A DNA stretch of 64,000 bases from Candidatus Polarisedimenticolaceae bacterium (GTDB lineage: Bacteria > Acidobacteriota > Polarisedimenticolia > Polarisedimenticolales > DASRJG01): assembly GCA_036275915.1 (NCBI GenBank), contig DASUCV010000004.1, forward strand, positions 201,238 to 265,237, read 5' to 3'. The position numbers and the translations under genes were made by a program. Under the pieces are notes generated by a model that was given only the letters and a program-made list of their open reading frames with translations, searched no databases and was not told where the DNA came from. Shown here one piece after another: positions 21,662 through 43,667 of the stretch (its first letter is position 1; each line of letters opens with the position of its first letter).

Positions 21662-22522
21662 CTAGGGACAGGGGATCGCATTCTCGCGAGGCGTCCCCGC
21701 GCTGTCGGCTCCCAGGTCCCCCTCGATTCCCGCGGTGATCCCCGCGACGAGGAAGAACTGCGCCTGGCCCGCCTCTGGCACGGCCTCGTCCCCGAGGTAC
21801 GGGTTGAACACGCCGCACACCTGCTCCGCGAGCGCGTTCGATCCGGGGGTCTGCGCGTACGCCCCGGTCGCCTTCAAGATCGAGAGGTCGCCTTCGTAGA
21901 CGCTCCACCGCGACGACCCGATCTCGTCCTGCCACTCGATGTAGTCCTTGTCGTCGGTGCCGAGGATGTAGATGACGCCGTCGTCGAGATCGCACACGTC
22001 GCCTTCGCCGTCGGCGTCGATGTCGGACTGCGTCGGGTTCGCGACGAAGACGCAGTTGTCGCAGGCGTCACCCCAGCCGTCGCCGTCGAAGTCGTCCTGC
22101 GCCGGATTGAACGTCTCGGGACAGTCGTCGCAGGCGTCCCCGACGTGGTCGCCGTCCGTGTCGGCCTGATCCGGGTTGAACGCCGACCGGCAGTTGTCGC
22201 ACGCGTTGTGGACGCCGTCGCCGTCGGAGTCGACGCCGTCGGCGTCTTCGTCGACGAGGCCGTTGCAGTCGTTGTCGAGGCCGTCGCAGATCTCCGCGGC
22301 CCCCGGATGAACCGACGCGTGCGCGTCGTCGCAGTCGCTCGCGTCCGCGACCCAGCCGCGAGGCACCGGGCCGTGGCACACGGTGATCGAGATCGCGGGA
22401 TCGCCGAACCCGTCACCGTCCGCGTCCCGATGGAAGACGTTGCAGGCGCCGTGCGTACTCCCCGCGACCGCTGCGTGAAGCAGCACGGCCGCAAGCGAGG
22501 CACCGCACGCCACCGGGATCAT
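21662..22522 (-). CDS. Small secreted tail-only paralog: signal peptide, MopE-like motif, about 4 thrombospondin type-3 repeats, C-terminal ...CP module
   Basis: GGAGA RBS before ATG 22522 ([21 protein letters not shown]). [67 protein letters not shown] and [12 protein letters not shown]. Ends ...[31 protein letters not shown]. Confidence 0.85.
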
Positions 22523-22665
22523 CGTCTCCCCTGCCTTCGAGAACAGGTACCGCAGGGGTGCCCGAAGCACCACGACTTTCTTTTACGTAGGCCGTCTTCA
22601 GGGGTTCAGGATGGACTTCGAGCGAAGGTTCGGGGTAGCGTTCGACGCTTCAAGAGGAGTCGGTC

Positions 22666-24738
22666 ATGCGCGCTCTCCGTCTCGCCGTCGCCGTTGCCCT
22701 TCTGGCCGCGCCTTTCGTGGCGCGTGCCGCCGATGACGATCCCTATCAGTGGCTGGAAGAGGTCGAGGGCACCCGCTCTCTCTCGTGGGTCAAGGAGCAG
22801 AACACGAGGTCGCTCGGCGAGCTGCAGGCGGTGAAGGAGTACCAGCCGATCTACGACAAGACGCTTTCGATCTACGACTCGCAGGACAAGATCGCGTTTC
22901 CGAACGTCATGGGCAGGTACATCTACAACTTCTGGCAGGACAAGGCGCACGCGCGCGGGATCTGGCGCCGCACTTCGATCTCGTCGTACAAGACGGCTTC
23001 ACCCCAGTGGGACACCGTGATCGACCTCGACGCGCTCTCGCGCGACGACAAGGCCACCTGGGTCTGGAAGGGAGCGGACTGCGCGCACCCGGATTTCCGG
23101 CGGTGCCTGATCAACCTGTCACGCGGCGGCGGCGACGCCGTCGTGGTGCGCGAGTTCGACACCGAGACGAAGAGCTTCGTGAAGGACGGCTTCACCCTTC
23201 CCGAGGCGAAGACCGAAGCGTCGTTCAAGGACCTCGACACGCTCTGGGTCTCGACCGATTTCGGTCCCGACACGCTGACGACCTCGGGCTATGCGCGCAT
23301 CGTGAAGCTCTGGAAGCGCGGCACGCCGCTCGCTTCGGCGAAGACGGTCTTGACGGCGAAGAAGGAGGACGTCGGCGTCGGTGCGGGAACGGAGTTCACC
23401 GCGGACGGCAAGTACGACCTCGTCGGCGTCAATCCGACGATCTTCACGCGGCGGAGCTATCTCATGGTCGGCGACCGCCTCGTGCACCTCTCCCTTCCGG
23501 AGGATGCGGACTTCCGTGGGATCTTCCGCGACCGGGCGATCTTCGAGGTCAGGAGCGACTGGAAGCCCGGGGCGACGACGTACAAGCAGGGCTCGCTCCT
23601 CGCGGTGGCGATCGACGACCTCCTCGCCGACCGCGACACCGTCTCGACGATCTTCGAGCCTTCGGAGCGTGTCTCCTTGGGCGAGGTGCGTCTCACCAAG
23701 GACCAGATCGTCATGTCGACCCTCGACAACGTGCGCTCCAAGCTCTACCGCGTGAACCTGGGAGACGCCGGCTGGACGAAGGAGGAGATCGCCCTCCCCG
23801 GCCAGGGCAACGCCGACATCGTGGGAACGTCGCGGGACAACGAGATCTTCTTCTACCAGTATCAAGACTTCCTCACCCCGTCGTCGCTCTTCCTCGTCGA
23901 GAAGGAGGCGACGACGAAGATCAAGTCGCTCCCCGCCTACTTCGATGCCGCCGGGATGAGCGTCAACCAGTACGAGGCGACGTCGAAGGACGGGACCAAG
24001 ATCCCCTACTTCGTCGTAGCGCCGAAGGGGTTCAAGGCCGACGGCACCGCGTCCACGCTGCTCTACGCGTACGGCGGCTTCGAGGTCGCCGAGCAGCCGA
24101 GCTACAGCGGCGTCGTCGGCTCCGCGTGGCTCGCGCGCGGCGGCGTGTACGTGCTCGCCAACATCCGCGGCGGCGGCGAGTTCGGGCCGGCGTGGCACCT
24201 GGCCGCGATCAAGGCGAATCGGCTCAAGACCAACGAGGACTTCGTGGCGGTCGCTCAGGACCTCATCGCCAAGAAGATCACGACGTCACGCCACCTCGGG
24301 ATCATGGGCGGAAGCAACGGCGGCCTCCTCGTCGGGACAGCGTTCACGCTCCAGCCGGACCTCTTCCACGCCGTCGTCTGCCAGGTCCCCCTTCTCGACA
24401 TGAAGCGCTACTCGCACCTCCTCGCCGGAGCCTCGTGGATGGACGAGTACGGCGACCCGGACAAGCCGGAGGACTGGAGCTACATCCAGACGTTCTCGCC
24501 CTACCAGCTCGTGAAGAAGGACGTCCAGTACCCGCGCGTCTTCTTCTGGACGACGACGAAGGACGACCGCGTGCATCCGGCGCACGCGCGCAAGATGGTC
24601 GCGAAGATGCTCGGTCAAGGCCACGACGTCCTCTACTTCGAGAACGTCGAAGGCGGCCACGGCACCGGCGGCGTCAACTCGCAGAAGGCGCTGACGGTCG
24701 CGCTCCAGTACGCCTACCTGTGGAAGACGCTCGAGTGA
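22666..24738 (+). CDS. Secreted prolyl oligopeptidase family (S9A) serine peptidase
   Basis: Signal MRALRLAVAVALLAAPFVARA, then DDPYQWLEEVEG..SLSWVKEQN, typical of the POP N-terminus. Catalytic GGSNGGLL. DDRVHP and EGGHG supply the Asp/His region. Confidence 0.92.
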   Translation: MRALRLAVAVALLAAPFVARAADDDPYQWLEEVEGTRSLSWVKEQNTRSLGELQAVKEYQPIYDKTLSIYDSQDKIAFPNVMGRYIYNFWQDKAHARGIWRRTSISSYKTASPQWDTVIDLDALSRDDKATWVWKGADCAHPDFRRCLINLSRGGGDAVVVREFDTETKSFVKDGFTLPEAKTEASFKDLDTLWVSTDFGPDTLTTSGYARIVKLWKRGTPLASAKTVLTAKKEDVGVGAGTEFTADGKYDLVGVNPTIFTRRSYLMVGDRLVHLSLPEDADFRGIFRDRAIFEVRSDWKPGATTYKQGSLLAVAIDDLLADRDTVSTIFEPSERVSLGEVRLTKDQIVMSTLDNVRSKLYRVNLGDAGWTKEEIALPGQGNADIVGTSRDNEIFFYQYQDFLTPSSLFLVEKEATTKIKSLPAYFDAAGMSVNQYEATSKDGTKIPYFVVAPKGFKADGTASTLLYAYGGFEVAEQPSYSGVVGSAWLARGGVYVLANIRGGGEFGPAWHLAAIKANRLKTNEDFVAVAQDLIAKKITTSRHLGIMGGSNGGLLVGTAFTLQPDLFHAVVCQVPLLDMKRYSHLLAGASWMDEYGDPDKPEDWSYIQTFSPYQLVKKDVQYPRVFFWTTTKDDRVHPAHARKMVAKMLGQGHDVLYFENVEGGHGTGGVNSQKALTVALQYAYLWKTLE

Positions 24739-24742: not shown

Positions 24743-25906
24743 TTAGGGACACGGGTTCGCGTTCGGCCTCGGCGTCCCCGCGCTGTCCGTCCCCAGCGAT
24801 CCCTCGACACCGCCGGTCACGCCGGTGACGAGGCTGAACTCCACCTGTGCGCTCCCCGGCACGATCGTGTCGAGCGAGAACGGGTCAGTGACGCCGCACG
24901 ACTTCGACGCGAGCGGGTTCGACCCCGGCGCTTGCGTGTACGTGCCCGACAAGCGGAGCACCGAGAGATCGCCGGTGTACACGTTGAACGCCGACGGTCC
25001 GGACTCCTGCTGCCACTCGACGTAGCTCTTGTCGTCGGTGCCGAAGATGTAGATCAAACCGTCGTTGAGGTCGCAGACGTCGCCCTCGCCGTCCTGGTCG
25101 AAATCCGATTGCGAGGGATTGAAATCGAACGCGCAGTTGTCGCAGTTGTCCCCGACCTTGTCTCCATCGGTGTCGATCTGCGAGGGGTTCGACGCGTGCG
25201 GGCAGTTATCGCAAGCATCACCGATCGCATCGCCATCGGCATCGGCCTGTGACGGGTTCGACACAGTCGGGCAATTGTCACAGACGTTCCCCACGTGGTC
25301 GCCGTCGGTGTCGGTCTGGGTCGGATTCGCGACCGTCGGGCAGTTGTCGCAGGCGTTGTGAATGCCGTCGCCGTCGGTGTCGACGCCGAGCGCGTTGTCA
25401 TCGACGAGACCGTTGCAGTCATCGTCGATGCCGTTGCACACCTCCACCGCGCCGGGATGGATCGCCGGATTCGCGTCGTTGCAGTCGTTCGCGCAGATCC
25501 GATAGCCGTCTCCGTCGGCGTCGGCTTCGTTGGCCGGCACCGCGGGCCAATTCGGGTCGGAGCAGTTGTTGTTCTTGCCGTCGCAGAGCTGCGGAGCGCC
25601 CGGATAGATCGTGGGGTCGTTGTCGTTACAGTCGCCCTGGCAGATCCGGAAGGCATCGCCGTCCGCGTTGGCTTCGTTCGCGGGCACGGTCGGCCAGCTC
25701 GGGTCGAAGCAGTTGTTGTTCTTCCCGTCGCAGAGCTGCGGGGCGCCGGGGTAGACCGTCGGGTCGTTGTCGTTGCAATCGGTACCGGCGGCGACGTACC
25801 CCGCCGGGGGGATTCCGGCGCAGCCGGTCGCCGGCTTCGTCGCATCGCCGTAACCGTCGCCATCCACATCCCGATAGAACGTCGCGACGGTGGCGCAGGC
25901 ACAATA
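24743..25906 (-). repeat. Conserved 3' module of paralog A (MopE-like, TSP3 and C-terminal domain coding), copy 1 of 4
   Basis: Long runs of identical nucleotides with 28833-, 32689- and 36701-, for example GGCCTCGGCGTCCCCGCGCTGT and GGTGACGAGGCTGAACTCCACCTG. The inner boundary is approximate. Confidence 0.7.
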
Positions 25907-28822
25907 CGCGCCTCCGTTCGACGCGAAAGGTAGTCCGCCCCAGACAAGGAACTGTGAACCGCTCCAAGCCGCGACGTGGTTGGTGCGCGGGCTCGGCGCA
26001 CCTTGCGACGTGGTCGTCCGCCATGTGTCGGAAGACGGGTTGTACCGGCCCCCGGTTGCTACGCTGCGCTGGTTCGACTGAGCATCGCGGTAGTCACCGC
26101 CCCAAACGATGAGCTCGACGCCGGTCCACGCATACGACGGGGACTCCACACCACGCGGCGCGCCCACGTTCGAGCCGGTGGTCCAAACATCCGACGTCGG
26201 GTTGTACCGCGACGGAAAGTTCGGCAATGGCTCGGGGTTCCAAAATCCGCCCCAGACGACTAGCTCGCTTCCCGTCCACACCCCGGCCAAGCTCGATCGT
26301 TGCTGAGGCTCTCCCACGGTCGAAATTCCCAGCCAAGAGTCCGAAGCGGGATCGTACCGGCCGCCAGGGCTGACTCCGCCCCCGCCCCAGACCAGCATGC
26401 GCGAGCCGGTCCATACGGCGATGTGCCCGCCGCGCCCCGCCGGTGCCCCGGTGGTGGTCGTCGGCACCCAGCTATTCGCGACGGGGTCGTACTTTCCCCC
26501 GGTGTTGAATTGGTTCCCCGAGTCGCCGCCGCCCCACACGATCATCTGCAAACCGGTCCAGACGGCAGAGGCACCCGATCGAGGGGCCGGAGCGTTCACC
26601 GTTGAGGTCGCCGACCATGCATTGCCGGCCGGGTCGTACTGCCCGCCGGTATTCGTGGTGGGAAGGCCACCCCAAACGACCATGCGAGTACCGGTCCAGA
26701 CCGCCGTGTGACTCGTGCGTGCGCTCGGCGCGTTGACGAGAGAGGTCGGCGTCCACGTGTCGATCGCCGGCGAGTACCGTGCACCGGAGGCCGTAGGCGT
26801 GGCGTCGGGCACGACGCCGCCGCCCCACATGATCATCTCGCTTCCGGTCCACACCGACGCCGTGAACCGGACGGGAGCGGGTAGCGTTCCGGTACCTGTC
26901 TTGATCCAGGTATCGGTGACCGGGTTGTACCGTCCACCGGTGTTCAAGTAGCCGCCGCCCCACACGATCATCTCGCTGCCGGACCAGATCGCCGTGGCGT
27001 TCCCGCGGGCGTCGGGAGTGTTAACCGACGACACGCTGCTCCAGAGATCGGTTACGGGGTCGTAGCGCGCGCTCCCCAACGAAGGATGGCTCCCATCCCA
27101 GACAATCATCCGCTGACCGGTCCAGACAGCCACTTCTCCTGACTCGACGGCGGCGGAATTGAGAGTGCTCATGATCTGCCAGCTATCGGCGGACGGGTCG
27201 TAGCGATAACCGGGGTTGGTCGGCGCGCCGAAGATGTTTCCGGCCCAGACGATCATGCGCGTCCCGGCCCAGACCGCGAGATGCTGGTAGCGCGAGCCGG
27301 GGCCCCCGGTCGTGGTGGTCGGTGTCCACGTGTCGGTCACCGGATCGTAGCGTCCGCCGGTGTTCGTGGCGCCGCCGCCGCCGTAACCGCCCCACACGAT
27401 CATCCGGTTGATGCCGTCGCCGGCCCACAGCGCCGTATGGAGGTATCGGCCCGCCGGCGCGCTCGTGAGGCTCGTGGGCGTCCAGGAGTCGGTCGACGGC
27501 GAGTAGCGGCCTCCCGTATTCAGGAACGCGCTCGTAGACCCTCCCCACACGACCATCTGCGTCCCCGTCCACACGGCGGTGGCGAAACCTCGCGGAGAGG
27601 GCGCGCCCGTCGAGGCGATGAGCTGCCACGTGTCCGAGGTCGGGTTGTATCGCGCGCCGTCGCCCAACGCCGCTTGCGTCACGTCCTGTCCGCCCCAGAC
27701 GATGAGCTCGGAGCCGCTCCACACGCCGACGTGCAGGTAGCGAGCGGACAGCGGCGAAGTCGCCATGCGCGTCCAGGCATCGGTCGCCGGGGAGTACCGC
27801 CAGCCGTCGCCCAACATGTAGAAAACACTGAGGTCGCGCCGGCCTCCCCAGATCAGCATCTCGCTGCCGGTCCAGACCGCGACGTGATCCTGGCGGGGAT
27901 CGGGAACGTCTTGCTTCGTCGGGGTCCACGTGTCGTCGGTACAGCTCGAGGCGGCGGGCGCGGGAACGGTGAGCGATGTCACCGCGGGCACCGTCGTCGG
28001 CGCGGCGAATGTGCCGGCGTTCGCACCCCACCATGCGTCGAACGTCTTCCGGTCCCACATGACCGACGCGACGCGGATCTCGTCGGCGCTCGCGCTCAGC
28101 ACGGCGATCGCCTCGAATCCGTTCTCGGACTCGCGCGCCGGTCCGATGCGGCCGACCGGCAGCGCGGATCCCGACTCGACGCCGAGCTGTCCGGCGAGTC
28201 CGGTCATCAGAGCTCTCCAGCGTTCGTCGTCGAGCGATGTCGGCACGGACGCATCGGCGGCATGCGTCCAGGTGGTCTCGGTGTAGTGTTCTCCCGCAGC
28301 GCGCATCGCCTCGACCGACACGAGCCCCGCGTAGAGTCGATTCACACGCCGACGGTCGTCGCCACCGAACCGGTCATCCTGATCGTAGAGATACCGCACC
28401 GCTCGATCGACGAGGATTGGCCGGACGAGGCATTCGCCGATGAGCGCCGGATCGTCGTGCAGCGCCACGAACAACTCGCGGAGCATCGCCCCGTCGCGGG
28501 TCTCGCTCGCCATCCGATTCAGCTCGAATTGGATCTCGGCGGCGGAGATCGATCGGCCCCACAGATTCTCCAGCGCCGACGCTTTCCGAAGATCGTCCTC
28601 GACCCTCGCGCGGATGACGGAGTCGGGCGTGACTTCCGACAAAGGCGGTTTGGTGCCAGGGTTCTCCTTGGGCCAGATGCGGTGCGACCAATACACCTGC
28701 TCGATCGCCTTCTGAGCGGTCACCCGCTCGTCGAGCGTGAGTGTGCGGGTACCTCCCGCGCGAGCGAGAGTCGCCGCGGTCATGGCGAAGCCGATCGTCA
28801 CCACGATGCACCGCTTCGTCAT
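24743..28822 (-). CDS. Giant secreted Kelch/MopE/TSP3 paralog A (1359 aa)
   Basis: ATG 28822 ([22 protein letters not shown]). N-domain ...[18 protein letters not shown].... 14 WTG..M.VWGG blades. 3 MopE-like [23 protein letters not shown] units. 5 DxDxDG TSP3-type units. Ends [11 protein letters not shown]. The extra 37 codons of ORF ..28933 overlap gene B and were rejected. Confidence 0.9.
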   Translation of the reverse strand: MTKRCIVVTIGFAMTAATLARAGGTRTLTLDERVTAQKAIEQVYWSHRIWPKENPGTKPPLSEVTPDSVIRARVEDDLRKASALENLWGRSISAAEIQFELNRMASETRDGAMLRELFVALHDDPALIGECLVRPILVDRAVRYLYDQDDRFGGDDRRRVNRLYAGLVSVEAMRAAGEHYTETTWTHAADASVPTSLDDERWRALMTGLAGQLGVESGSALPVGRIGPARESENGFEAIAVLSASADEIRVASVMWDRKTFDAWWGANAGTFAAPTTVPAVTSLTVPAPAASSCTDDTWTPTKQDVPDPRQDHVAVWTGSEMLIWGGRRDLSVFYMLGDGWRYSPATDAWTRMATSPLSARYLHVGVWSGSELIVWGGQDVTQAALGDGARYNPTSDTWQLIASTGAPSPRGFATAVWTGTQMVVWGGSTSAFLNTGGRYSPSTDSWTPTSLTSAPAGRYLHTALWAGDGINRMIVWGGYGGGGATNTGGRYDPVTDTWTPTTTTGGPGSRYQHLAVWAGTRMIVWAGNIFGAPTNPGYRYDPSADSWQIMSTLNSAAVESGEVAVWTGQRMIVWDGSHPSLGSARYDPVTDLWSSVSSVNTPDARGNATAIWSGSEMIVWGGGYLNTGGRYNPVTDTWIKTGTGTLPAPVRFTASVWTGSEMIMWGGGVVPDATPTASGARYSPAIDTWTPTSLVNAPSARTSHTAVWTGTRMVVWGGLPTTNTGGQYDPAGNAWSATSTVNAPAPRSGASAVWTGLQMIVWGGGDSGNQFNTGGKYDPVANSWVPTTTTGAPAGRGGHIAVWTGSRMLVWGGGGVSPGGRYDPASDSWLGISTVGEPQQRSSLAGVWTGSELVVWGGFWNPEPLPNFPSRYNPTSDVWTTGSNVGAPRGVESPSYAWTGVELIVWGGDYRDAQSNQRSVATGGRYNPSSDTWRTTTSQGAPSPRTNHVAAWSGSQFLVWGGLPFASNGGAYCACATVATFYRDVDGDGYGDATKPATGCAGIPPAGYVAAGTDCNDNDPTVYPGAPQLCDGKNNNCFDPSWPTVPANEANADGDAFRICQGDCNDNDPTIYPGAPQLCDGKNNNCSDPNWPAVPANEADADGDGYRICANDCNDANPAIHPGAVEVCNGIDDDCNGLVDDNALGVDTDGDGIHNACDNCPTVANPTQTDTDGDHVGNVCDNCPTVSNPSQADADGDAIGDACDNCPHASNPSQIDTDGDKVGDNCDNCAFDFNPSQSDFDQDGEGDVCDLNDGLIYIFGTDDKSYVEWQQESGPSAFNVYTGDLSVLRLSGTYTQAPGSNPLASKSCGVTDPFSLDTIVPGSAQVEFSLVTGVTGGVEGSLGTDSAGTPRPNANPCP

Positions 28823-28832
28823 CACCCACCCC

Positions 28833-30150
28833 CTACGGACACGGGTTCGTATTCGCCCTCGGCGTCCCCGCGCTGTCCGTCCCCAGCGATCCCTCGACAC
28901 CGCCGGTGACGCCGGTGACGAGACTGAACTCAACTTGGCTACTGCCCGGCACGATCGTATCGAGCGAGAACGGGTCGGTGACTTGGCAGGCCCTCGACGC
29001 CAGCGGATTCGATCCCGGCGCCTGTGTGTATGTGCCGGACAAGCGGAGCACGGAGAGATCGCCGGTGTAGACGTTGAACGCGGTCGGACCCGTCTCCTGC
29101 TGCCACTCGACGTAGCTCTTGTCGTCGGTGCCGAAGATGTAGATCAGCCCGTCGTTGACGTCGCAGGCGTCCCCTTCGCCGTCGTGGTCGAAGTCGGATT
29201 GCGTCGGGTTGTAGTCGACCGGGCAGTTGTCGCACTGGTCGCCGATCTTGTCGCCGTCGCCATCGGCCTGAGCCGCGTTTGGTGCCAACGGGCAGTTGTC
29301 ACAGGCGTCGCCCAGCCCATCGCCGTCGGAGTCGAGCTGGCTCGCGTTCGCGACCGTGACGCAGTTGTCGCAAGCGTTCCCCACGTGGTCGCCATCACTG
29401 TCGGTCTGCGTCGCGTTCGAGACCGTCGGGCAGTTGTCGCAGGCGTTGTGGATGCCGTCGCCGTCGGTGTCGACACCTTGCGCATTCTCGTCGACTTGTC
29501 CGTTGCAGTTGTCGTCGATCCCGTTGCAGATCTCCGCCGCACCGGGGTGAACGGCCGGGTTCGCGTCGTTGCAATCGTTGGCGCAGATGCGGTAGCCGTC
29601 GCCGTCCGCATCGGCTTCGTTCGCGGGGACCGTCGGCCAGGACGGATCGTTGCAGTTGTTGTTCTTGCCGTCGCAGAGCTGCGGCGCGTTCGGGTACACG
29701 GTTGCGTCGCCGTCGTTGCAATCGCCCTGGCAGACGCGGAATCCGTCGTGGTCGGCGTCCAGCTCGCTTGGCGGAAGGGCCGGCCAGCCCGGCGACGAGC
29801 AGTTGTTGTTCAGCCCGTCGCAGATCTCCGGAGCCCCGGGGTAGACCTTGTTGTTGTTGTCGTTGCAGTCGCCGCCGCACGTGGTGAAGCCGTCATTGTC
29901 GACGTCGAACCCCTCGTCGATCTTTCCGTCGCAATTGTCGTCGATGCCGTTGCAGACCTCCGTCGCGTTCGGGTGGACCGCAGGATCGGCGTCGTTGCAG
30001 TCCCCGCGACTGCGAGAATAACCAGCCGGCTTGTCGCAGGCCTGGACCGTATCGCTCGCCACGCCGTACCCGTCCCCGTCGACGTCGCGGTACCACGTCG
30101 CCGGGGTGCACGGGGTCGTGCAGTAGCGCGCCCCGTTCGAATTCAGCGGC
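28833..30150 (-). repeat. Conserved 3' module of paralog B, copy 2 of 4
   Basis: Same as copy 1. Contains one additional MopE-like unit that is shared with D. The inner boundary is approximate. Confidence 0.65.
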
Positions 30151-32669
30151 ACTCCGGCGAAGACCAGCATCTGCCGGTCCATGCGCACCGCGCCATGCAT
30201 GGCGCGCGGGTACGGTGCGCCGGTGATCGACGTCGTCGACCACGTGTTCGCCACCGGATTGAATCGAGCGCCGGTCGCCGTGGAAGTGTTGCCGCTCACG
30301 GGAGTGTCCTGGCCTCCCCACACGATCGCCTCAGTGCCGGTCCACACGATCGAGTGATCGAACCGCTCCGACGGAGTGCCGGCGCCGGTGGAGCTTGCGG
30401 TCCACGCGTCGCCCGCGGGATCGTAGAGGCCGCCGGTGTTCAATCCCGGCCCGCCCTGAACGGCGCGTCCGCCCCAAACGAACAGATTCGAGCCGGTCCA
30501 GACGCCTTCCGGGATGCTGCGTGGCGCCGGGGCGTTGACGGTGGATACCGCCATCCATGCGTCGCCGACCGGGTCGTAGCTGCCGCCCGTATTGGTGTCC
30601 GAACCGCCCCAGATCAGCATGCGTGACCCGGTCCAGACCGCCACGTGGTCCGAACGTCCCGAAGGAAGCGGTCCGGTAGTGCTCGTCGGGCTCCAGGTGT
30701 CGGCAACCGGATCGTAGCGTGCGCCGGTGTTGAGATTGTTTCCGCCCCACACCACGACGCGGGCACCGGTCCAGACCGTGGACGATCCCGTGCGATTCGA
30801 TGGGGCGCCCGCGGTCGCGACCGGACGCCATAGATTCGCCTGCGGATCGAACCGGGAGAATCCCTCGTTGCCTCCGCCGACAAACATCTCGATCCCGGTC
30901 CAGACGGGGTGACCGCCCAATGCGTTGGGGAGCGGCGTCCAGCTATCGAGAGCAGGGTCGTATTTCGATCCGTGAAGTATGGGGTTAGGGTTCGTCGGCG
31001 CGTCCCCACCTTGGACGATCGCCTCCGCTCCCGTCCAGATGATCCCCGGGTTGCGCCGGACCGACGCCACCGAAGCGGGCGCCGCAGTAGCGACCCAGAT
31101 GTTGGTCGTCGGGTTGTAACGTCCGCCCGTCCTGAGGCTGCTGTCGCCGCTCGAAACCTGCCCGCCCCAGACGATGACTTCGCTTCCGCTCCAGACCGCG
31201 GTGCTTCCCAAGCGAGGACTCGGCGCCCCCGTTAGGGACGTCGCGGTCCAAGAATCGGACACCGGATCGTACAAACCGCCGGCGGAGCTGACATTGCTTC
31301 CGAAGACGAACATCTTCGATCCGGTCCAGACGGCGACGTCTCCTCCGAACGCGCCTGCCGTGGAGACCGGCGCCCACGCATCGTTCACCGCGTCGTAGCG
31401 ACTTCCGCACACGATCATGCGTGTTCCCGTCCAGACGGGGTGTGCCACTGAGCATCCCGTGGGTCCGGCGGCCATCGTTTGCCACGTGTTCGTGGCCGGA
31501 TCGTAACGACCTCCTGAGTTCAGCGTGGCTCCAAGCTCGGAGCCGCCATAAATCAGCATCCGCTGACCCGTCCAAACCGCGGCATGACCCTGTCGCGGGA
31601 GCGGCACGTTGATCGTCTCGAAATCGGTCGCCGTCCACGTGTCGGTCGATGGGTTGTACTTCGCGCCGGTGTTCGTCTCCCCAGCAGACGCCACCCCGCC
31701 CCAGATGACCATCTCCGTACCGGTCCATACGGCAGTGTGTTTGTAACGGGCGGAGGGGGCCGCACCGGACGTCGAAGTCGGCGTCCAGCTGTCGGTCGCA
31801 GGGTTGTAGCGGGATCCGGTGTTGGTGAGGGATATCGAGAACGGGCTCGCACCGGCCCCGCCCCACACGATCATCGAGGTTCCTGTCCAGACCGCCGTCG
31901 TCCCATAGCGCCCCGGGCCACCGGACAAGCTCATCGTCGTCCACGTGTCGGTCGCGGGGTTGTAGCGAAATCCATCGGGCGCATAGACGTTGTCGCTCTG
32001 GCCGCCCCACACGAGCATTTCGGTTCCGGTCCACACGGCCACGTGGTTCGCGCGCGGCTCCGGCGGATCCGCCTTGAGCGTCTGCCACGTCCCGTCCGTG
32101 CAAGCCGGCGTGTCGATGTCGGGAGGCCGCAGCTCTCCGAGCGCTTCGGGAGCGACCGGGTCGAAGGACCGTTTCGCGTCGGCCCACCAAGCCTCGAACG
32201 GCACCTTCCCGGTAGACGGCAGGTCGACGTCGTACCAGTTACGCATGAGGCGTTCGGCCAGGACAGGCCGCACAACGACTTCGGCGAAGACGTTCAGGTC
32301 CCCTCCAAGGGCGTCGATGAGCTCTTGGAGCATCGATGGATCCTTCGTGTTGTGACCCATTCGATCGATCTCGGCTTGGAGCTGCGTCGTGTCGAGCCCT
32401 CGCATCCAATACCTGTCCAGAGCGGCGTTCTTCCTCAGAGCTTCCTGGACGTCCGCGCGGATCGCCTCGTCGGAGAGCACCGCGGAGAGTGGCGGCTTCG
32501 GGGCGGGGTTCTCGTTGGGCCAAATCCTGTGGCGCCAGTACACCTCTTCGACGGCCCGCCGCGCCGCGACTCGCTCATCGAGACTCAGCGATCGCGTTGG
32601 CCCGGCGGCGGACGCCGCAAACGAGATGACGGCCCCGACCCCGATTGCGATCGCCATGCGCGTTTTCAT
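28833..32669 (-). CDS. Giant secreted Kelch/MopE/TSP3 paralog B (1278 aa)
   Basis: Signal [39 protein letters not shown]. 14 blades. An extra ...[26 protein letters not shown]... unit. Ends [11 protein letters not shown]. Lies 10 nt upstream of A. Confidence 0.9.
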
Positions 32670-32688
32670 CGTCGGCCTCCAGCGACAC

Positions 32689-33855
32689 TCAAGGACACGG
32701 ATTCGCGTTCGGCCTCGGCGTCCCCGCGCTGTTCGTTCCCAGCGATCCCTCGATACCGCCAGTCACGCCGGTGACGAGGCTGAACTCCACCTGTGCGCTC
32801 CCCGGCACGATCGTGTCGAGCGAGAACGGGTCGGTGACCTGGCAGGCTCTCGACGCGAGCGGATTCGACCCCGGCGCCTGCGTGTACGTTCCGCTCAGTC
32901 TCAGGACCGAGAGATCGCCGGTGTACACGTTGAACGCCGACGGCCCCGTCTCCTGCTGCCACTCGACGTACGTCTTGTCGTCGGTGCCGAAGATGTAGAT
33001 CAGGCCGTCGTTGACGTCGCAGACGTCGCCTTCGCCGTCGTGGTCGAAGTCGGATTGCGTCGGGTTGTAGTCGGAGAGGCAGTTGTCGCAGGCGTCCCCG
33101 ACCCTGTCGGCATCCGTATCGAGCTGCGAGACGTTCGGCGCCAACGGACAGTTGTCGCACGCGTCGCCGATCGTGTCGGCATCGGTGTCGGTTTGGCTCG
33201 GGTTGGCGATCGACGGGCAGTTGTCGCAGGCGTTCCCCAGGTGATCGCCGTCCGTGTCGGTCTGGGTCGCGTTCGAGACCGTCGGGCAGTTGTCGCAGGC
33301 GTTGTGAATACCGTCGCCGTCGGTATCGACGCCGAGCGCGTCCTCGTCGACCTGACCGTTGCAGTTGTCGTCAATGCCGTTGCAGATCTCGGCGGCGCCG
33401 GGATGGATGGCAGGATTCGAATCGTTGCAGTCGTTCTGGCAGATGCGGTAGCCGTCGCCGTCGGCGTCGGCTTCGTTCGCCGGCACCGCCGGCCATGACG
33501 GATCCGAGCAGTTGTTGTTCTTCCCGTCGCAGAGCTGCGGGGCGCCCGGGTACACCGTTGCGTCGTTGTCGTTGCAATCGCCCTGGCAGATACGGAAGGC
33601 GTCACCGTCGGCGTTGGCTTCGTTCGCCGGCACTGTCGGCCAGCTCGGATCCGAGCAATTGTTGTTCTTGCCGTCGCAGAGCTGCGGCGCCCCCGGGTAG
33701 ACCGTCGGGTCGTTGTCGTTGCAGTCGCCTGCCGTCGCCGCGTACCCGGCCGGCGGGATTCCGGTACAACCCATCGCGGTCGTCGAGGCGACGCCGAACC
33801 CGTCGCCGTCGGCGTCGCGGTAGAACGTCGCCGGCGTCGTGCAGGCGCAGTACCG
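32689..33855 (-). repeat. Conserved 3' module of paralog C, copy 3 of 4
   Basis: Aligns by eye with 24743-25906 over more than 1 kb, with most positions identical. The inner boundary is approximate. Confidence 0.7.
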
Positions 33856-36690
33856 ACCGCCGTTGGACAGGTTGGCCCCGCTCCAGACGATCATCTCGGA
33901 GCCGGTCCAAACAGAATTCGCGAATTCACGACCTGAGGGCGCCCCTTGAGTGGTGCCGGTTCGCCACGAATCGGCCGACGGGTTGTAGCGCCACGTCGTG
34001 TTCGTGAAGATGTATCCGCTGAACGTCAGCATTTCGATCCCGGACCAAGCGCTTGCCGCTACCTTGTTGCCCGGTGAGCCAGTGGTCGAGACCGGGTGCC
34101 AAACGTCGGCGACCGGGTCGTATCGGCCGCCTCCTAGGCGCCCCCAGACGATCATCTCGGTCCCGCTCCAAACCGACGTCATCCCGTCCTGCCACGACGG
34201 CTGGTTCGCCGTCGCGATCGCCGTCCAGACGTCCGCGACCGGATCGTAGCTACCTCCCGAAGTCGTCCCGGACTGATTGCCTCCCCAGGTCACCATGCGT
34301 GAGCCTGTCCAGACACCGACTGCATCACGTCGAACTTGCGGAGCTCCGTTGAGATTGGTCGCGGCCCACGTATCGGCCACGGGATCGTATCGAGCGCCGG
34401 AATTGAGGAGCCCGCCTCCCGACGCATAGCCCGACCAAACGATCATCCGCGTTCCGCTCCAGACGGCGACGTGTTCCTGGCGGCTCGCGGGCGCGTTCGT
34501 CAGCGACGTCGCGGTCCATGAGTTGGTCGCGGGGTCGTAGCGTCCACCGGTGTTCGTGACGGTCGATCCTGGAGCAGAGCCTCCCCAGACGATCATCCTC
34601 GTGCCGCTCCACACCGCGGTATGTAGATCACGAGCGGCCGGCGCGTTGGTCGACGACGTGGGGGTCCACGCGTCGAGTGCCGGCGAGTAGCGGGATCCCG
34701 AGGCCAACAGCCCCGTGATGTCAGATCCGCCCCAAACCACCATCTCGGAACCGGTCCACACCGACGTCGAATTGATGCGTGACGTGGGCACGGTCCCGGC
34801 CTGCGTGGCTACCCAACTGTCGGTCGCCGGGTTGTACCTGCCGCCATCGTTCCTGGAGGCGGAGGCATTTCCCCCCCATACGACCATCTCCGTCCCGGTC
34901 CACACCGCGGTATGAGAGTGGCGCGCGGCCGGCGCGTTCGTCAGCGAAGTCGCACTCCAAGTGTCGGCGACGGGATCGTACCGCCCCCCCGCGTTCGTGT
35001 TCGCCCCGCCCGGCGGCAATCCGCCCCAGACGATCATCCTGGACCCGGTCCACAACGCGCTATGCAAGTACGTGACCGTCGGCTGGTTGGTCGTCGAGAT
35101 CGGTTGAAAGGTATTGGTCGCCGGGTCGTAGCGCTGACCCGGAGCGTTGGCGGCGCTGAGCAAGCCACCCCAGAGGATCATTCTCGAGCCTGTCCAGACG
35201 GCGGAGTGCGAGTAGTTGGCGGGCGGCGCGCTGTTCAGGTCGGTCGCCGTCCAACTGTCGCTCGCCGGGTTATAACGACCTCCAGTATTCGTCGGGGGGT
35301 AGCCGCCCCACACGATCATCTCGGAACCGGTCCAGACGGCCGTGTGGAGATAGCGTGCTACCGGCGCATTGGTGAGAGTCGTCGCCGCCCATGAGTCGGT
35401 CGCTGGCGCGTATCGTCCGCCGCTGTTGAAGAAGCCTGCGCCGTTGCCCCCCCAAACGATCATCTGGCTTCCCGTCCAAACGGCCGAAGGGTTTCCACGC
35501 AAAGCCGGCGCACCGGTCGCCGAGATCGAATTCCAGGTATCCGAAGCCGGGTTGTACCTGCCGCCACCGCTGATCGTGTTGCTCTGATTGTCCATCCCGC
35601 CCCAGACGATCAACTCGGTACCGGTCCACACGAAAGCGAACTGGCCACGAGCGGCGGGCGCACCGGTCCGGGCGATGCGCGTCCAGGTATTGCTGGCGGG
35701 CGAGTATCGCCATCCGTCGTTCCAAACGCGGTTCTCGCTCTCGCCGCCCCAGATCAGCATCTCGCTCCCGGTCCAGACCGCGGCGTGGTAGTAGCGCGAG
35801 TCGGGAACGTCCTGCTTCGTCGGTTGCCATGTGTCGTCCGTGCATCCCGCGTCCGGCAGCGCGAGCACGAGTCCGGTCGTGGCGACGGCAGAGGAGTCTG
35901 CCGAGAGCGTGCCTGACGTCCGCTCCCACCAGAGGTCGAACGGCGTGCGGTCCCAGACGATCGAAACGAACCGTATCTCGTCCGGAGAAGCTTTCTCGAG
36001 TCGAATCGCATCGAACCCCGTCGAGGATTCCCGCAGAGGGCTGAGGCGGCCGAGAGGAAGCTTCGTCGGATCGCTCGTTGGTTCCGGCATCCCGAAGCGC
36101 GCACCGAGGCGCTGAACATCGCTCGCCCACTCGTCGTCACGACGATCGCTCCGCCGCCAGGTCAGCGTCTCGACGTGGTCGCCCGAGGGCCGCTGACCAT
36201 TCCACAAGCGCTCGGCGCGGGCGCGGTCGGCGCCTCCATATCGCTCATCAGAGTCGTAGAGGTGTCGTGTCATGCGATCAGCCAAGATGGGACGGACCAA
36301 GCATTCGGCCACCAAGACCGGGTCGTCGCGCAGGGCCGCGATGAGCTCCCTGAGCATGTTCCCGTCTCGTGTCTCGGCCGCGATCCGATTCATCTCAGCT
36401 TGAACTTCTTCCGGAGAGATCGATCGTCCCCAGATCGTCTCCACGGCCCGCGACTTCCGGAGATCATCCTCGACCTTCGCGCGGATCGCGGAGTCGGGCA
36501 TGACTTCCGACAGCGGCGGCTTGGGGCCTGGGTTCTCCTTGGGCCAGATGCGGTGCGACCAGTAGACCTGCTCGATCGCCTTCTGAGCGGCCACGCGCTC
36601 CTCGAGGGTAAGGACGCGCGCTTCCTCCGCGCGAGCGAGAGTCGCCGCCACGGCGACGCCGACCATCACCACGATGCACCGCTTCGTCAT
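32689..36690 (-). CDS. Giant secreted Kelch/MopE/TSP3 paralog C (1333 aa)
   Basis: Signal [21 protein letters not shown], the same start as [19 protein letters not shown]. 14 blades. Ends [11 protein letters not shown]. Lies 19 nt upstream of B. Confidence 0.9.
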
Positions 36691-36700
36691 CGTCGACCTC

Positions 36701-38020
36701 CTACGGGCAAGGATTCGCGTTCGGCCTCGGCGTCCCCGCGCTGTTCGTTCCCAGCGACCCCTCGACGCCTCCGGTCACTCCCGTGACGAGGCTGAACTCC
36801 ACCTGCCCGCTCCCCGGCACGATCGTGTCGAGCGAGAACTGGTCGGTGACCTGGCAGGCCCTCGACGCGAGCGGATTCGACCCCGGCGCCTGCGTGTACG
36901 TGCCGGACAAGCGGAGCACGGAGAGATCGCCGGTGTAGACGTTGAACGCCGACGGTCCCGTCTCCTGCTGCCACTCGACGTACGTCTTGTCGTCAGTGCC
37001 GAAGATGTAGATCAGGCCGTCGTTGAGGTCGCAGGCGTCGCCCTCGCCGTCGTGGTCGAAGTCGGATTGCGTGGGATTGGGTTCGGCGATGCAGTTGTCG
37101 CAGTTGTCTCCGACTTTGTCGCCGTCGGTGTCGACTTGCGACGGGTTTGGCGCGAGCGGGCAGTTGTCGCACGCGTCGCCGATCGCGTCGCCGTCGACAT
37201 CTGACTGCGAGGCGTTCGAGGTGTTCGGGCAATTGTCACAGGCGTTGCCGACATGATCCCCATCGCTGTCCGTCTGGGTCGGGTTCGAGATCGTCGGACA
37301 GTTGTCGCAGGCGTTGTGCACGCCGTCCCCATCCGTGTCGACTCCCTGCGCGTTCTCGTCGACCTGCCCGTTGCAGTTGTCGTCGATGCCGTTGCAGATC
37401 TCCGCGGCACCAGGATGGACCGCGGGGTTCGAATCATTGCAATCGTTCTGGCAGATCCGATACCCGTCGCCGTCGGCGTCGGCCTCGTTCGCCGGCACCG
37501 TGGGCCACGACGGATCGGAGCAGTTGTTGTTCTTGCCATCGCAGAGCTGCGGCGCGCCCGGATAGACGGTCGCGTCGTTGTCGTTGCAATCGCCCTGACA
37601 GATGCGGAACGCGTCGCCGTCGGCGTTGGCTTCGTTGGCGGGCACCGTGGGCCACGACGGGTCCGAGCAGTCGTTATTCTTGCCGTCGCAGAGCTGCGGC
37701 GCGCCCGGATAGACGGTCGGATCGTTGTCGTTGCAATCTCCCTGGCACGTCGTGAACGCATCGCCATCGACATTGAACCCTTCGTCGATGCGGCCGTCGC
37801 AGTTGTCGTCGATGCCGTTGCAAACCTCGACGGCGCTCGGCTTGATCGCCGGGTTGGCATCGTTGCAGTCGCCGCGCGACGCGACGTAACCGGCGGGCTT
37901 GTCGCACGACGTCGTCGTGACGTTGTCGTCGCCGTAGCCGTCGCCGTCGGCATCGCGGTACCAGGTCGAGAGCGCGCATGTCCCGAGGCAGTAGCGGCCA
38001 CCTCCCGATGTCTGCGGGCT
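36701..38020 (-). repeat. Conserved 3' module of paralog D, copy 4 of 4
   Basis: Same as copy 2. The inner boundary is approximate. Confidence 0.65.
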
Positions 38021-40915
38021 ACCGCCCCAGACGATCATCTCGGTGCCCGCGACGACACCGGCGTGACCCGACCGCACGTCGGGAACGAGCCCCGTGACGG
38101 ATGTCGGCTGCCAGGTGTCGGACGCCAGGTTGTAACGGCCTCCGCTGTTGTAGAGATAGCCCGCCATCTGGAAGTTCGCGCCGCCCCAGACGATCATCTC
38201 GGTGCCGTTCCAGAGCGCCGTGTGGGAGATACGCGCACCCGGAGCGCTCGCGGTGCTCGTCGTGCCGAACGTGTCGGTCGCCGGGTTGTAGCGCAGCCCC
38301 GTGTTGAGTTGGCTCCCACCAGCTGAACCGCCCCAGATGATCATCTCGGTTCCAGTCCAGACCGCGCTGGCGTCGGTGCGAGCCGCGGGTGCGCCGAAGC
38401 CGGAGTACGTCGGCGTCCACGAATCGGTCGCGAGATCGTACCGGCCGCCGGTATTCGTCGGATTGTTGTTGGCCTGGCCACCCCACACGACGAGCTTCGA
38501 TCCCGTCCACGTGAACGCCATCCCCGAGCGCTGGGAAGGCGCTCCCGTCGTCGACACGGGGGACCATGTATTCGACGAAGGATCGTAGATCGAGCCCGTG
38601 TTCAGGAAGTTGCTCCCGCCGGCGTCACCGCCCCAGATGATCAGACGCGTCCCCGTCCAGACACCTGCATGCGACGAGCGCGCTTGCGGAATGTTCGCCG
38701 TGGGGATCCACGCATCCGCGACCGGGTCATACCTTCCCGTCGAGGTTCCTCCGTTGAACCCGCAGCTGACGATCATCGCTTTTCCGGTCCAGACCGCCGT
38801 GTGGCCGGACCTCGCTGCCGGCGCGTTGGTCGTCGCCGTCAACGTCCACGCATCGAGCGCCGGGCTGTATCGGCCGCCCGTGTTGAGATAGGCCGTCTGG
38901 CCGGTGTTCGTCTGCTCGCCGCCCCACACGATCATCTCGGCGCCGGTCCACACCGACCCGGCCTTGTTGGCCGGCGGCGGACGCAGACTTCCTTCCGAGA
39001 TCGGGGTCCACGTATCCGTCGCCGGCGAGTACCTCGCCCCGCTGCGCAGCACCTGCGAGAAATAAGAGGTGCGACCACCCCAGACGATCATCTCCGAGCC
39101 GGTCCAGACGGTCGAGTGCTTCCAGCGGCCGGTCGGCACTCCGGGCCCGGTGCTCGTCGGCGCCCACGTATTCGTCGACGGGTTGTAGCGTCCACCGGTC
39201 GTGAAGCCGGGTCCGCTGGTTTCGCTCGTCGTCCCGCCCCAGACGATCATCTCCGTTCCCGTCCAGACGCCCTGCGGCCAGTCGCGCTTCGGCGGGACGT
39301 TCGCGCCGGTGCTCGTCGGGGCCCACGTGTCGGTCGAGGGATCGTAAAGACCGCCGGTGTTGTCCTGCTGTCCTCCCCACACGATCATCCGGCTCCCGGT
39401 CCAGACGGCGACGTGATTGCTGCGTGCGGTCGGCGTCGTCGCGTCGAATCTCGTCGGCGTCCACGAGTCGGTCGTAGGGTTGTACCTGCCGCCGGTGGCG
39501 CCCGCGCTGCCGCCCCAGACGATCATCTCTGTTCCGGTCCAGACGGCGCTGTGACCGACGCGACCGGTCGGAACGTTCGTCTGCGAGAACGGAATCCAAG
39601 CGTTGAGCGGGAGGCTGTAGCGCGAGCCGAGGTCGGACGTGCCGCCCGACGCGGGGTTCCCGCCCCAGATGATCATCTGCGTTCCGGTCCAGACTGCGGT
39701 GTGGCCGTAGCTGCCGCGGCTCGCGGGGGCGTTGGGTGGGATCGGCGTCCAGGTATCGGTCGCGGGGTTGTAGCGGGATCCGTCGTTGAGCGCCCCGATC
39801 CAATTCGTGTACCCCCCGTAGACGAGCATCTCGCTGCCGGTCCACAGCGCGGTGTGCGAGCGGCGGGCGACGGGCGCCCCCACCATCGTCGTCGCCGACC
39901 AGGTGTCGGTCGCCGGGTTGTAGCGATAGCCGGCCTGCGAAAGGCTGCCGCCCTCGTTCGGCTGGTCGGAGCCGCCCCAGACGATCATCTCCGATCCGGT
40001 CCAGACGCCCGTGTGGTAGTTTCGCGGATCGGGACCGTCGCTCCCCAAGCGCTTCCAGGTGTCGTTCGTGCAGGCGGCGTCCGGAAGGGCCGGTACTGCG
40101 ATCGCGTCGGCGGCGAGCGCCGAGCTCGGCTCGACCGTCGCCGCAGTGCTCTTCCACCATGCATCGAACGCCGGCTTGTCCCAGCGGACGGTCGCCGCCG
40201 TAATGGCGTCGGCGTCGGACGAAACGATCCGCGTGAGGGTGTAGGCCGCGTCGTCCTCTTGAAGCAGACCGTCGTTCTTCTCGAGCCAGGCACGACGTTC
40301 CTCGAACTCCGGCGGCGCAAGAACGACGGCGTCACCTGCAGCTTGGGCTCCGCGCCGCCATGTCGTCTCTCGGAAGCCCGGTCCCGAGCGATGCATCGCG
40401 GGGATGGACGTCAGGACCGCGGCGCCGCGCTCCGCGCTCTCCCTCGTACTGCTTTGAATTGCGCCGTCCGAGGCGAAGAATTGATGGACGAGCCGGTCCG
40501 CGAGAATTGGACGCACGAGCGCCTCGGCGATCAGTCTTGGATCGTTGTTGAGGGCGTCGAGCAGCTCGCGCAGGACGTCCGGCGCTTGCGTGCCGGCCGT
40601 CATGCGCTCGAGCTCGGCCTGAATCTCGGGCGCGGTGAGCGGATGATTCCAGCGCGTGGCCAAGACTGCCGATTGCCGCAGCGCGAGATCGACCTTCCCT
40701 CGAAGCACCTCGGGCGTCACGACCGTGTCGAAGGCGGGCCGAGGCTCGGTGCTCGCCCAAATCCTGTGCCGCCAGTACACCTCCTCGATCGACTTCTGGG
40801 CCGCGATGCGCTCTTCGAGGGTCAGCGCTCGAGGCGTCGCGTGGGCTGCACCTGTCATGAAGAAGGAAAGGGAAACCGCGACCACCGCGGCGCGAAGCCG
40901 GCGTTGACGGCCCAT
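36701..40915 (-). CDS. Giant secreted Kelch/MopE/TSP3 paralog D (1404 aa)
   Basis: Signal [40 protein letters not shown]. 14 blades. A ...[26 protein letters not shown]... unit as in B. Ends [11 protein letters not shown]. Lies 10 nt upstream of C. Confidence 0.9.
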
Positions 40916-41072
40916 GACTGCCTCCCCCGCCGCCGGATCGACGACCGGCGGTCCTCCGTTGCGGACGTGTTACGCCGATAACTCGATGGCGTCAAGACAA
41001 TGAAGCGATTTGTCACACGCCCGAAGCCACGTGGCGGAGGCGGCGATGTTGCGGCCTCTCGGCAAAGGACTT

Positions 41073-43642: not shown

Positions 43643-43667
43643 GCGGGCGCGATGGTAGCATCGCGTC

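Follow-up and report, generated by a model that had tools for sequence, protein, structure and literature searches.

Background

Eukaryotic Kelch proteins (KLHL, KEAP1, KLHDC2, LZTR1) have repeats of the same family as a group of large secreted proteins encoded in a 64,000-nt stretch of DNA (the window; contig DASUCV010000004.1, positions 201,238–265,237) from a Candidatus Polarisedimenticolaceae metagenome-assembled genome (MAG) of the phylum Acidobacteriota. The group consists of an array of four genes, termed G1–G4 (positions 24743–40915 of the window), and a divergent fifth paralog, G5 (13945–17136). The relationship is seen in matches to the Pfam families PF24681 and PF24981 at 145–367 bits and in structural similarity at TM-scores (TMt) of 0.70–0.75. 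However, the solved Kelch domains that are matched are single propellers of approximately 275–330 residues, six-bladed in KLHL and KEAP1, whereas two seven-bladed propellers built from near-consensus blades are predicted at this locus. The context also differs: a bacterial N-terminal domain (N-domain) precedes the propellers, and the BTB/BACK, CUB or EGF context of the eukaryotic proteins is absent. Attractin and MEGF8 are extracellular proteins in which Kelch repeats are combined with Cys-rich modules.

Thrombospondin and COMP carry Ca-binding repeats with the motif D.D.DG..D.CDNC that are homologous to those described here. The proteins from the window differ in that they have five such repeats only, an Fn3-like sandwich appears to replace the L-lectin-like C-terminal domain, and coiled-coil, EGF and TSR modules are absent. 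TraA of Myxococcus has a variable head on Cys-rich repeats that have been hypothesised to be a display stalk, and type-3 repeats occur in TraB, the partner of TraA (PMC6372800). The design is alike in its signal peptide, variable recognition head and Cys-rich repeats. The head of TraA is PA14-like, however, and its end is MYXO-CTERM, whereas the array proteins have a Kelch head, lack MYXO-CTERM and have no TraB-like partner gene.

In BT4663 and Aip1/WDR1, 14 repeats form two propellers, as is proposed here. The N-terminal strand of Aip1 completes its last blade, and by analogy a closure of the same kind may apply to the 14-blade Kelch proteins. The repeat families are different (Reg_prop and WD40), the orientation of the propellers is unlike that in BT4663 (TMt 0.30), and there is no signalling or actin context. 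NanM/YjhT and MtsC share only generic repeats with the array proteins (Kelch blades and thrombospondin type-3 repeats), which belong to neither family.

Results and discussion

Architecture of the Kelch proteins

The proteins of the array are tentatively explained as Sec-exported modular binding proteins built of a head, a stalk and a foot. We favour this explanation, although our confidence in it falls somewhat short of even. The head would be an all-helical N-domain, with an alpha/beta insert in G1, G3 and G4, followed by two seven-bladed Kelch propellers. The stalk would consist of disulfide-rich MopE-type modules and then a Ca2+-binding thrombospondin type-3 'wire', and the foot would be a beta-sandwich similar to Fn3, with a probable disulfide staple at its terminal residues (...CP). 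The blade scaffold is near one consensus throughout, with B-C loops that vary in length and sequence between blades and paralogs; in other Kelch propellers these loops are on the face that binds ligands. The four-gene array would give several binding specificities on one stalk and foot, and the foot would tie Kelch and other heads to a common envelope or matrix partner. What we infer is that the proteins are extracellular or at the surface, that they bind ligands, that the propellers close as described below and that the foot is an anchor. The uniform scaffold with variable face loops favours a binding platform over an enzyme with one active site. The signal peptides, the disulfide-rich modules, the Ca-binding wire and the docking or spacer tails of relatives fit display outside the cytoplasm.

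The genes and their parts are as follows, with the C-terminal module designated the C-module.

36701–40915, minus strand: G4, 1404 aa. Signal peptide; N-domain aa 28–150 (nt 40466–40834); alpha/beta insert aa 151–254, which ends in FDAWW; 14 Kelch blades aa 282–976 (nt 37988–40072), blade 8 beginning near nt 38965; four MopE motifs nt 37373–37867; five type-3 repeats nt 37022–37339; C-module nt 36704–37042.
32689–36690, minus strand: G3, 1333 aa. N-domain aa 24–148 (nt 36247–36621); insert aa 149–255; 14 blades aa 283–948 (nt 33847–35844); three MopE motifs nt 33361–33723; five type-3 repeats nt 33010–33327; C-module nt 32692–33030.
28833–32669, minus strand: G2, 1278 aa. Short-form N-region, with N-domain aa 25–149, FEAWW at 158 and no insert; 14 blades aa 190–850 (nt 30120–32102), several of them degenerate; four MopE motifs nt 29505–29999; five type-3 repeats nt 29154–29471; C-module nt 28836–29174.
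24743–28822, minus strand: G1, 1359 aa from the ATG at 28822. N-domain aa 25–149; insert aa 150–265; 14 blades aa 294–974 (nt 25901–27943); three MopE motifs nt 25415–25777; five type-3 repeats nt 25064–25381; C-module nt 24746–25084.
13945–17136, plus strand: G5, divergent fifth paralog, 1063 aa, approximately 45% identical to G1. Short-form N-region; 14 blades nt 14485–16578; one MopE motif; no type-3 repeats; divergent C-module nt 16789–17133 (plus strand), which ends in ...HGTCP.

G1–G4 are four intact co-directional open reading frames (ORFs) on the minus strand, with spacers of 10, 19 and 10 nt. An earlier reading of the window, made from its letters alone (the original prediction), had described four co-directional genes of 1278–1404 aa with these gaps, a signal peptide in every copy and a fivefold amplification of paralogs. 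The exact ORF coordinates agree with this, Sec-type signal peptides are present in all five proteins as judged by eye from the sequence, and the amplification is real, with four adjacent copies and G5. A ribosome-binding site of the GGAGG or GGGGG type is found 5–8 nt upstream of each G1–G4 ATG. The mechanical list of ORFs has a longer G1 that starts from a TTG at 28933 and overlaps the end of G2 by 101 nt. Because of this overlap, and because the ATG at 28822 has a GGGGG ribosome-binding site and gives a normal signal peptide, the ATG is taken as the start. The third-position GC content of 0.81–0.85, in a sequence of 68% GC, fits real genes. A myxobacterial origin, which the 68% GC and the MopE motifs had brought to mind, was rejected, as exact protein matches assign the window to an 855,314-bp contig of the Polarisedimenticolaceae MAG. 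A scan for promoters and terminators was uninformative: it gave no promoter-like sites, and terminator-like sites were at chance level. G5 is NCBI protein P0207, with the GenBank name 'kelch repeat-containing protein'.

Kelch propellers

The repeats are members of the Kelch beta-propeller superfamily. Kelch_KLHDC2 (PF24681) matches with 219–367 bits and Beta-prop_ATRN-LZTR1 (PF24981) with 145–219 bits, where the cut-offs are 50. G3 residues 22–1010 were modelled with AlphaFold2 (AF2) from an alignment of 50 sequences. The model displays 14 four-stranded blades, with a mean predicted local distance difference test (pLDDT) value of 88.6 and a predicted TM-score (pTM) of 0.84. A Foldseek comparison of the model shows the similarity to KLHL and KEAP1 Kelch domains given above, alignments of 715–740 columns to tandem-propeller proteins, and a match at TMt 0.56 to a trypanosome microtubule inner protein that is a tandem propeller. 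HMM and structure searches, the two checks of Kelch identity put forward with the original prediction, are therefore both in agreement with it, the Pfam scores lying far above the cut-offs.

Exactly 14 blades per copy had been counted originally, and a loose regular expression gives 14 in all five proteins. A blade hidden Markov model (HMM) gives 14, 13, 14, 14 and 14 for G1–G5, and the shortfall in G2 is one degenerate blade. Among relatives that carry the N-domain and are at least 550 aa long, the counts by blade HMM are 7 (20 proteins), 14 (114 proteins), 21 (10 proteins) and 13 (16 proteins), with few in between. The 13-blade relatives are probably undercounts, as in G2. One relative of 4336 aa (P0340) has, besides RCC1-like repeats and numerous Fn3-like modules, two internal cassettes, each with an N-domain (aa 230–342 and 924–1036) followed by exactly 7 blades. 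This protein shows that the N-domain with one propeller is a mobile unit and that the N-domain is not merely a signal-proximal element. The 7/14/21 clustering, the P0340 cassettes, the pTM of 0.84 and the tandem-propeller matches in Foldseek support the proposal, also made at the outset, that the 14 blades would form two seven-bladed propellers.

The register of the repeats leaves a lone 'D.W' strand ahead of blade 1 and an 'RY' strand behind blade 14. The N-terminal 'C..D.W' strand probably completes the last blade and in this way closes the propeller pair. The Cys of this strand is probably joined by a disulfide to a Cys behind the final 'RY', which would fix the pair in the closed state. 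A Cys just ahead of the repeats, as first noticed in the original prediction, is confirmed in the five copies. The Cys ahead of the first strand and the Cys behind the last RY are found together in 101 of 142 fourteen-blade relatives.

All blades are near the consensus H.AVWTG.EMIVWGG...(variable)...GGRYDP..D.W..TS...P..R. The B-C loop, which follows WGG, is where sequence entropy and variation in length are greatest. In Kelch domains of the KEAP1/KLHL type, the B-C loops are on the substrate-binding face. Blade identity is 0.49 at the same position between paralogs, which hardly exceeds the 0.447 at different positions and the 0.448 within one protein, so that single blades have little individuality. 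The best match of a blade is at the same position in only 1–6 of the 14 blades between paralogs, too few for a blade-by-blade history from paralog orthology.

N-domain and insert

The N-domain has the consensus ER.AA..AIE.VYW.HR.WP...KP...LQAE..RM...RP.L..R. It is approximately 125–145 aa in length and helical, with seven helices at residues 8–143 of the G3 model. A conserved helical domain of roughly 170 aa had been proposed, of which the conservation and the helices stand but not the length. A variable linker ending in FDAWW had also been proposed. The motif is present across the copies as FDAWW, FEAWW or FDLWW, but in G1, G3 and G4 the segment before it is not a variable linker. It is a conserved alpha/beta subdomain of approximately 100 aa, for which AF2 predicts three long strands and two or three helices. 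When measured from the VYW motif to FDAWW, relatives are either short (approximately 113–123 aa, like G2 and G5) or long; the long form, which in many relatives contains this subdomain, has a conserved length of approximately 220–235 aa.

Neither Pfam nor NCBIfam has a model for the N-domain or the C-module. No Pfam family matches either of them even at E = 10, and there are no PDB sequence matches. A supposed resemblance of the N-domain to the N-domain of SurA-type chaperones was rejected with an hhalign probability of 0.2%. The lengths of the best 120 matches (125–217 aa) suggested that the N-domain also exists as a stand-alone small protein; this was rejected as well, as an exhaustive search gave many long proteins. 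The one match on a long contig that was examined (locus L001) is a piece of a broken gene for an N-domain and Kelch protein. At L001 and L072, from an uncultured Verrucomicrobiae MAG (contig_2974), genes of the family are split into many short ORFs, and these look like frameshift errors or pseudogenes. Such fragments topped word-indexed protein searches and could falsely suggest stand-alone N-domain proteins.

MopE motifs, thrombospondin type-3 repeats and the C-module

Stretches that match Cu-binding_MopE (PF11617) number 3, 4, 3, 4 and 1 in G1–G5. They score 50–138 bits against a cut-off of 27 and are assigned as putative metal-binding motifs. The thrombospondin type-3 family TSP_3 (PF02412) scores 39, 27.8, 20.4 and 27 bits in G1–G4 against a cut-off of 25, which G3 does not reach, and has no match in G5. 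By motif count there are five type-3 repeats in each of G1–G4, with the Ca-binding motif given above. Residues 1117–1237 of G3 match COMP with an E value of 1.6e-31 and thrombospondin-2 with 4e-27. Profile, motif, the COMP match and Foldseek all place these repeats with the thrombospondin type-3 repeats. G1–G4 end in ...NPCP and G5 in ...TCP. The original prediction gave each copy 3–4 MopE motifs, about five type-3 repeats and, at the C-terminus, a module with ...NPCP as its end. This is correct for G1–G4, but G5 has one MopE motif by Pfam, no type-3 repeats and a divergent module.

Two other genes in the window encode proteins with a C-module.

21662–22573, minus strand: M7 (HEX4823300, 'MopE-related protein'), 303 aa if read from the GTG and 286 aa if the start is the ATG at 22522.
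18653–21598, minus strand: S6, 981 aa. Propeller of the sortilin/BNR type; Cys-rich Dicty_CTDC repeats; divergent C-module, which ends in ...STCP.

In M7 a signal peptide is followed by a single MopE motif, type-3 repeats and the common C-module (...IPCP); with neither N-domain nor propeller, it is a 'stalk and foot only' protein. S6 is directly downstream of M7 and co-directional with it (18653–22573), and it shows the foot of the Kelch proteins on a different head. The AF2 model of M7 has a pLDDT of 74.8 overall, > 90 in the type-3 wire and approximately 90 in the C-module; the MopE motif region has low pLDDT. In Foldseek the wire matches TSP-1, TSP-2 and COMP (E 7e-7 to 1e-4), and the last 100 or so residues match Fn3 domains at a TMt of approximately 0.5. 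Because of these Fn3 matches the C-module is considered to be an Fn3-like sandwich. Two Cys in the module are nearly invariant (C236 and C285 in M7), and the sequences suggest that the C-terminal ...CP is stapled to the module by a disulfide.

The C-module is present on seven proteins within 27 kb that have three head states, and it is always at the extreme C-terminus. In other Acidobacteriota it ends BNR_2, PPC, DUF7034 and TSP3-only proteins, and in another Acidobacteriota MAG (L020) a 14-blade Kelch protein and a BNR protein form a pair, both with C-modules, as at this locus. This distribution is what would be expected if the Fn3-like ...CP module were an unrecognised sorting or attachment tag of Acidobacteriota, comparable to the C-terminal domains (CTDs) of the type IX secretion system (T9SS) or to dockerin, with the Kelch proteins as one class of cargo. 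The module is also homogenised among G1–G4, and it has a beta-sandwich fold, as do T9SS CTDs. However, no model for a T9SS CTD or other sorting signal matches, and no candidate genes for processing or secretion are found in the window or recur beside relatives. AF2 folds the module as an ordinary stable domain in which the terminal Cys is probably part of an internal disulfide, and a search with the module gave only 82 matches. A sorting tag is thus unlikely, though the strongest of the alternatives, and it partly complements the head-stalk-foot explanation. Membership in the T9SS C-terminal sorting domains as such was rejected, as no CTD model in NCBIfam matches at E ≤ 0.01 and the beta-sandwich is a resemblance only.

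Family distribution and relatives

An N-domain profile built from the five copies was searched against 1.84 billion representatives and found 3027 clusters at 50% identity, 2371 of them at E ≤ 1e-10. Among the matches listed, the N-domain begins within approximately 110 residues of the N-terminus, P0340 excepted. A full-length search with G5 gave at least 7938 matches at E ≤ 1e-10, and a scan of species-representative genomes gave 247 loci, where the best match is 61% identical. The array proteins are members of this uncurated family, in which the N-domain is directly before Kelch blades that occur in multiples of seven. The host genomes belong to the Acidobacteriota (Terriglobia, Pyrinomonadaceae, Polarisedimenticolaceae), the Verrucomicrobiota (Udaeobacter, Chthoniobacterales), the Eisenbacteria and the Fischerbacteria and have many copies each. 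Ideonella sp. DXS29W (P0240) and Marinicella pacifica (P0267) are candidate carriers that are in culture. One MAG has at least 8 loci of the family, and tandem arrays of two or three copies are found in about 10 of 76 loci.

The best 120 full-length relatives are 869–1791 aa in length with scores > 940 bits, and 115 of them have the N-domain. Their names are 'N-acetylneuraminic acid mutarotase' (JGI), 'kelch repeat-containing', 'MopE-related' and hypothetical. The tails of relatives include MopE, TSP3, Big_9/cadherin-like, HYR, dockerin, FG-GAP, fn3, Calx-beta, PKD, BACON and Pro-rich segments, and most family members are without type-3 repeats. Since relatives swap tail modules, the C-terminus may represent an attachment slot. 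Members from Verrucomicrobiota mostly end in Pro-rich TPRPRPTP tails, and those from Acidobacteriota often end in ...CP modules.

The combination of N-domain, 13–14 or more blades and C-module is found in 41 other proteins of a limited sample. The complete architecture, with three to four MopE motifs and four type-3 repeats, is also present in other Acidobacteriota, in two tandem genes at one locus (L002) and in L005, P0220, P0228, P0299 and P0330. When the 1003 ORFs that neighbour family genes at 78 loci were clustered all against all, no conserved neighbours emerged except more copies of the family, and two relatives with the full architecture are in unrelated gene contexts. Full-text literature searches found no paper on this architecture and no characterised member or established role.

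These results change the significance that was first given to the array. It had been considered the strongest candidate in the window for an undescribed system, which is not sustained, as the family is common, is present in several phyla and has a recurring architecture. The search for conserved neighbours that was proposed along with it revealed no recurrent neighbour family. The original prediction had itself named a common family with an established role as the finding that would speak against it; the family is common, but the searches found no such role. What the locus shows is the local amplification, to four copies plus one, of a very large, widespread and generically annotated family. 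Questions about function, the N-domain and the C-module concern the family as a whole and are no discovery specific to this window.

In many soils Acidobacteriota and Verrucomicrobiota are dominant, and both devote much coding capacity to this family, whose members are approximately 900–1800 aa in length among close relatives. Knowledge of the ligand of the double propeller and of the location of the proteins would account for a considerable part of soil-bacterial secretomes that now lacks annotation. No new principle comes from the locus itself, but it is a compact natural experiment in which four heads share one homogenised stalk and foot, while one further copy has no head and another has a different one. 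This arrangement could guide domain-swap and binding studies.

Homogenisation and history of the array

The C-terminal ~350 aa are 81–96% identical among G1, G3 and G4 and 69–92% identical in pairs with G2, compared with amino acid identities of approximately 40–60% between the propellers of G1–G4. Identical codons are mostly 63–88% in the C-terminal ~350 aa versus roughly 40–65% in the propellers, and the last (3') 300 nt are 87–92% identical among the array genes. As the identity of the tails exceeds that of the propellers, the C-terminal cassette either has been homogenised or is of more recent origin than the heads.

Four MopE motifs are found in G2 and in G4, and three in G1 and in G3. 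The first 100 residues of G1 and G3 are 78% identical. The spacers between G4 and G3 and between G2 and G1 each measure 10 nt, and the DNA across these two junctions is similar (repeat D9). The MopE counts, the N-terminal identity of G1 and G3 and the similar junctions point to an origin of the array by duplication of a two-gene unit.

Alternative explanations

Several observations weigh against the explanation as head-stalk-foot binding proteins. The N-domain is the most conserved part, with 50–61% identity across phyla, and this fits a catalytic or partner-binding unit that the explanation does not account for, which is its weakest point. Synonymous sites are saturated in the propellers. An NCBIfam scan and inspection recognised no signal for outer-membrane translocation or anchoring, i.e., no lipobox, T9SS CTD, PEP-CTERM or MYXO-CTERM, and the proteins could stay periplasmic.

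A broader reading has two separate parts. The N-domain and a seven-bladed propeller would form an undescribed extracellular receptor or enzyme cassette, of which thousands of proteins of soil bacteria contain one, two or three; the Fn3-like ...CP module would be an unrecognised attachment or sorting domain of Acidobacteriota that brings different heads to one envelope site; and the array would be a repertoire of specificities delivered via this shared address. This reading is unlikely.

The proteins may be extracellular enzymes, either with catalytic Kelch propellers similar to galactose/glyoxal oxidase or the NanM/YjhT sialic-acid mutarotase, or with a catalytic N-domain and propellers that hold the substrate. 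The N-domain conservation noted above is of the type this would need, and it includes the invariant polar residues E19, H25, Q76, E78 and R81 (numbering of G3 22–1010). Many relatives are named 'N-acetylneuraminic acid mutarotase' by JGI and there are weak TIGR03547/NanM matches, but the mutarotase models score 38–51 bits where the cut-offs are 243–416. In some relatives the tail is a dockerin or BACON module, as is typical for complexes that degrade glycans, yet a Pfam scan gave neither Glyoxal_oxid_N, DUF1929 nor another catalytic family. Unlike the blades of propeller enzymes, those of the array proteins have no conserved residues specific to one blade and are near-identical units of the consensus, and for the N-domain itself there is no match to Pfam, NCBIfam or PDB sequences. 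An enzymatic role is considered improbable, although the N-domain may be catalytic.

Two enzyme families were rejected specifically. Membership in NanM/YjhT is contradicted by scores of 38–51 versus 256 bits for TIGR03547 and 20–34 versus 416 bits for PRK14131, and by 14 blades versus a single six-bladed propeller. Membership in the copper radical oxidases is contradicted by the absence of Glyoxal_oxid_N or DUF1929 matches in Pfam at E ≤ 0.01 and by the uniform consensus blades.

A structural role would fit the homology of the type-3 repeats to COMP and thrombospondin-2, which is supported by Foldseek as well as by the E values given above. Instead of specific receptors, the array proteins might be matrix or cell-cohesion proteins that form networks by Ca2+-dependent self-association, like thrombospondin/COMP or MtsC of Myxococcus, and the high copy number per genome, the tandem arrays and partial matches to the MtsC model at approximately 92 bits would be in keeping with this. 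The MtsC matches, however, cover the type-3 part alone and are far below the cut-off of 350, and there is no MYXO-CTERM. Most relatives are without type-3 repeats, so the function of the head cannot depend on them, and neither a coiled coil nor another domain for oligomerisation was detected. A matrix role is judged quite improbable. MtsC (NF047638) membership was rejected: the match of approximately 92 versus 350 bits is to profile positions 65–124 only, and the C-terminus is folded and ends in ...NPCP without a transmembrane or Arg-rich tail.

That these are periplasmic ligand-binding proteins, like the double-propeller sensor of Bacteroides hybrid two-component systems without the kinase, is very improbable. 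In favour of it, the Foldseek alignment to the BT4663 periplasmic double propeller extends over approximately 740 columns, and the proteins have a Sec signal and no recognised outer-membrane targeting signal. Against it, the TMt to BT4663 is only 0.30 with a root-mean-square deviation of 16–18, transmembrane and kinase parts are absent, the dockerin, cadherin-like, PKD and TSP3 tails are typical of extracellular proteins, and no transporter or regulator is among the conserved neighbours. The PADLOC models of anti-phage defence gave no matches for G3, G5, M7 or S6.

Surrounding genes

The flanks at 41010–47064 and 47465–63825 consist of ordinary chromosomal genes, and no secretion or sortase-like genes were seen in them. 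They encode, among others, a GT4 glycosyltransferase, purA, histidine ammonia-lyase (HEX4823308), a GGDEF response regulator, a large HAMP/PAS histidine kinase, an ABC permease, a TPR/TonB_C protein, trpF, priA and coaBC.

The Kelch genes are within a stretch of approximately 32 kb that is rich in genes for exported proteins, with other such genes at 8962–13382 (minus strand), 17355–17861 (minus strand) and 22666–24738 (plus strand). The exported neighbours include an 846-aa Ig-domain protein (He_PIG/Big_9) and a small lipoprotein with a LAGC lipobox. A 579-aa PQQ-like propeller protein has a C-terminal segment that by eye is like the W...YYL-type tail modules of the locus. An S9 prolyl oligopeptidase with a signal peptide is also present (HEX4823301), and an S9 peptidase is found beside a family member at one other locus (L012).

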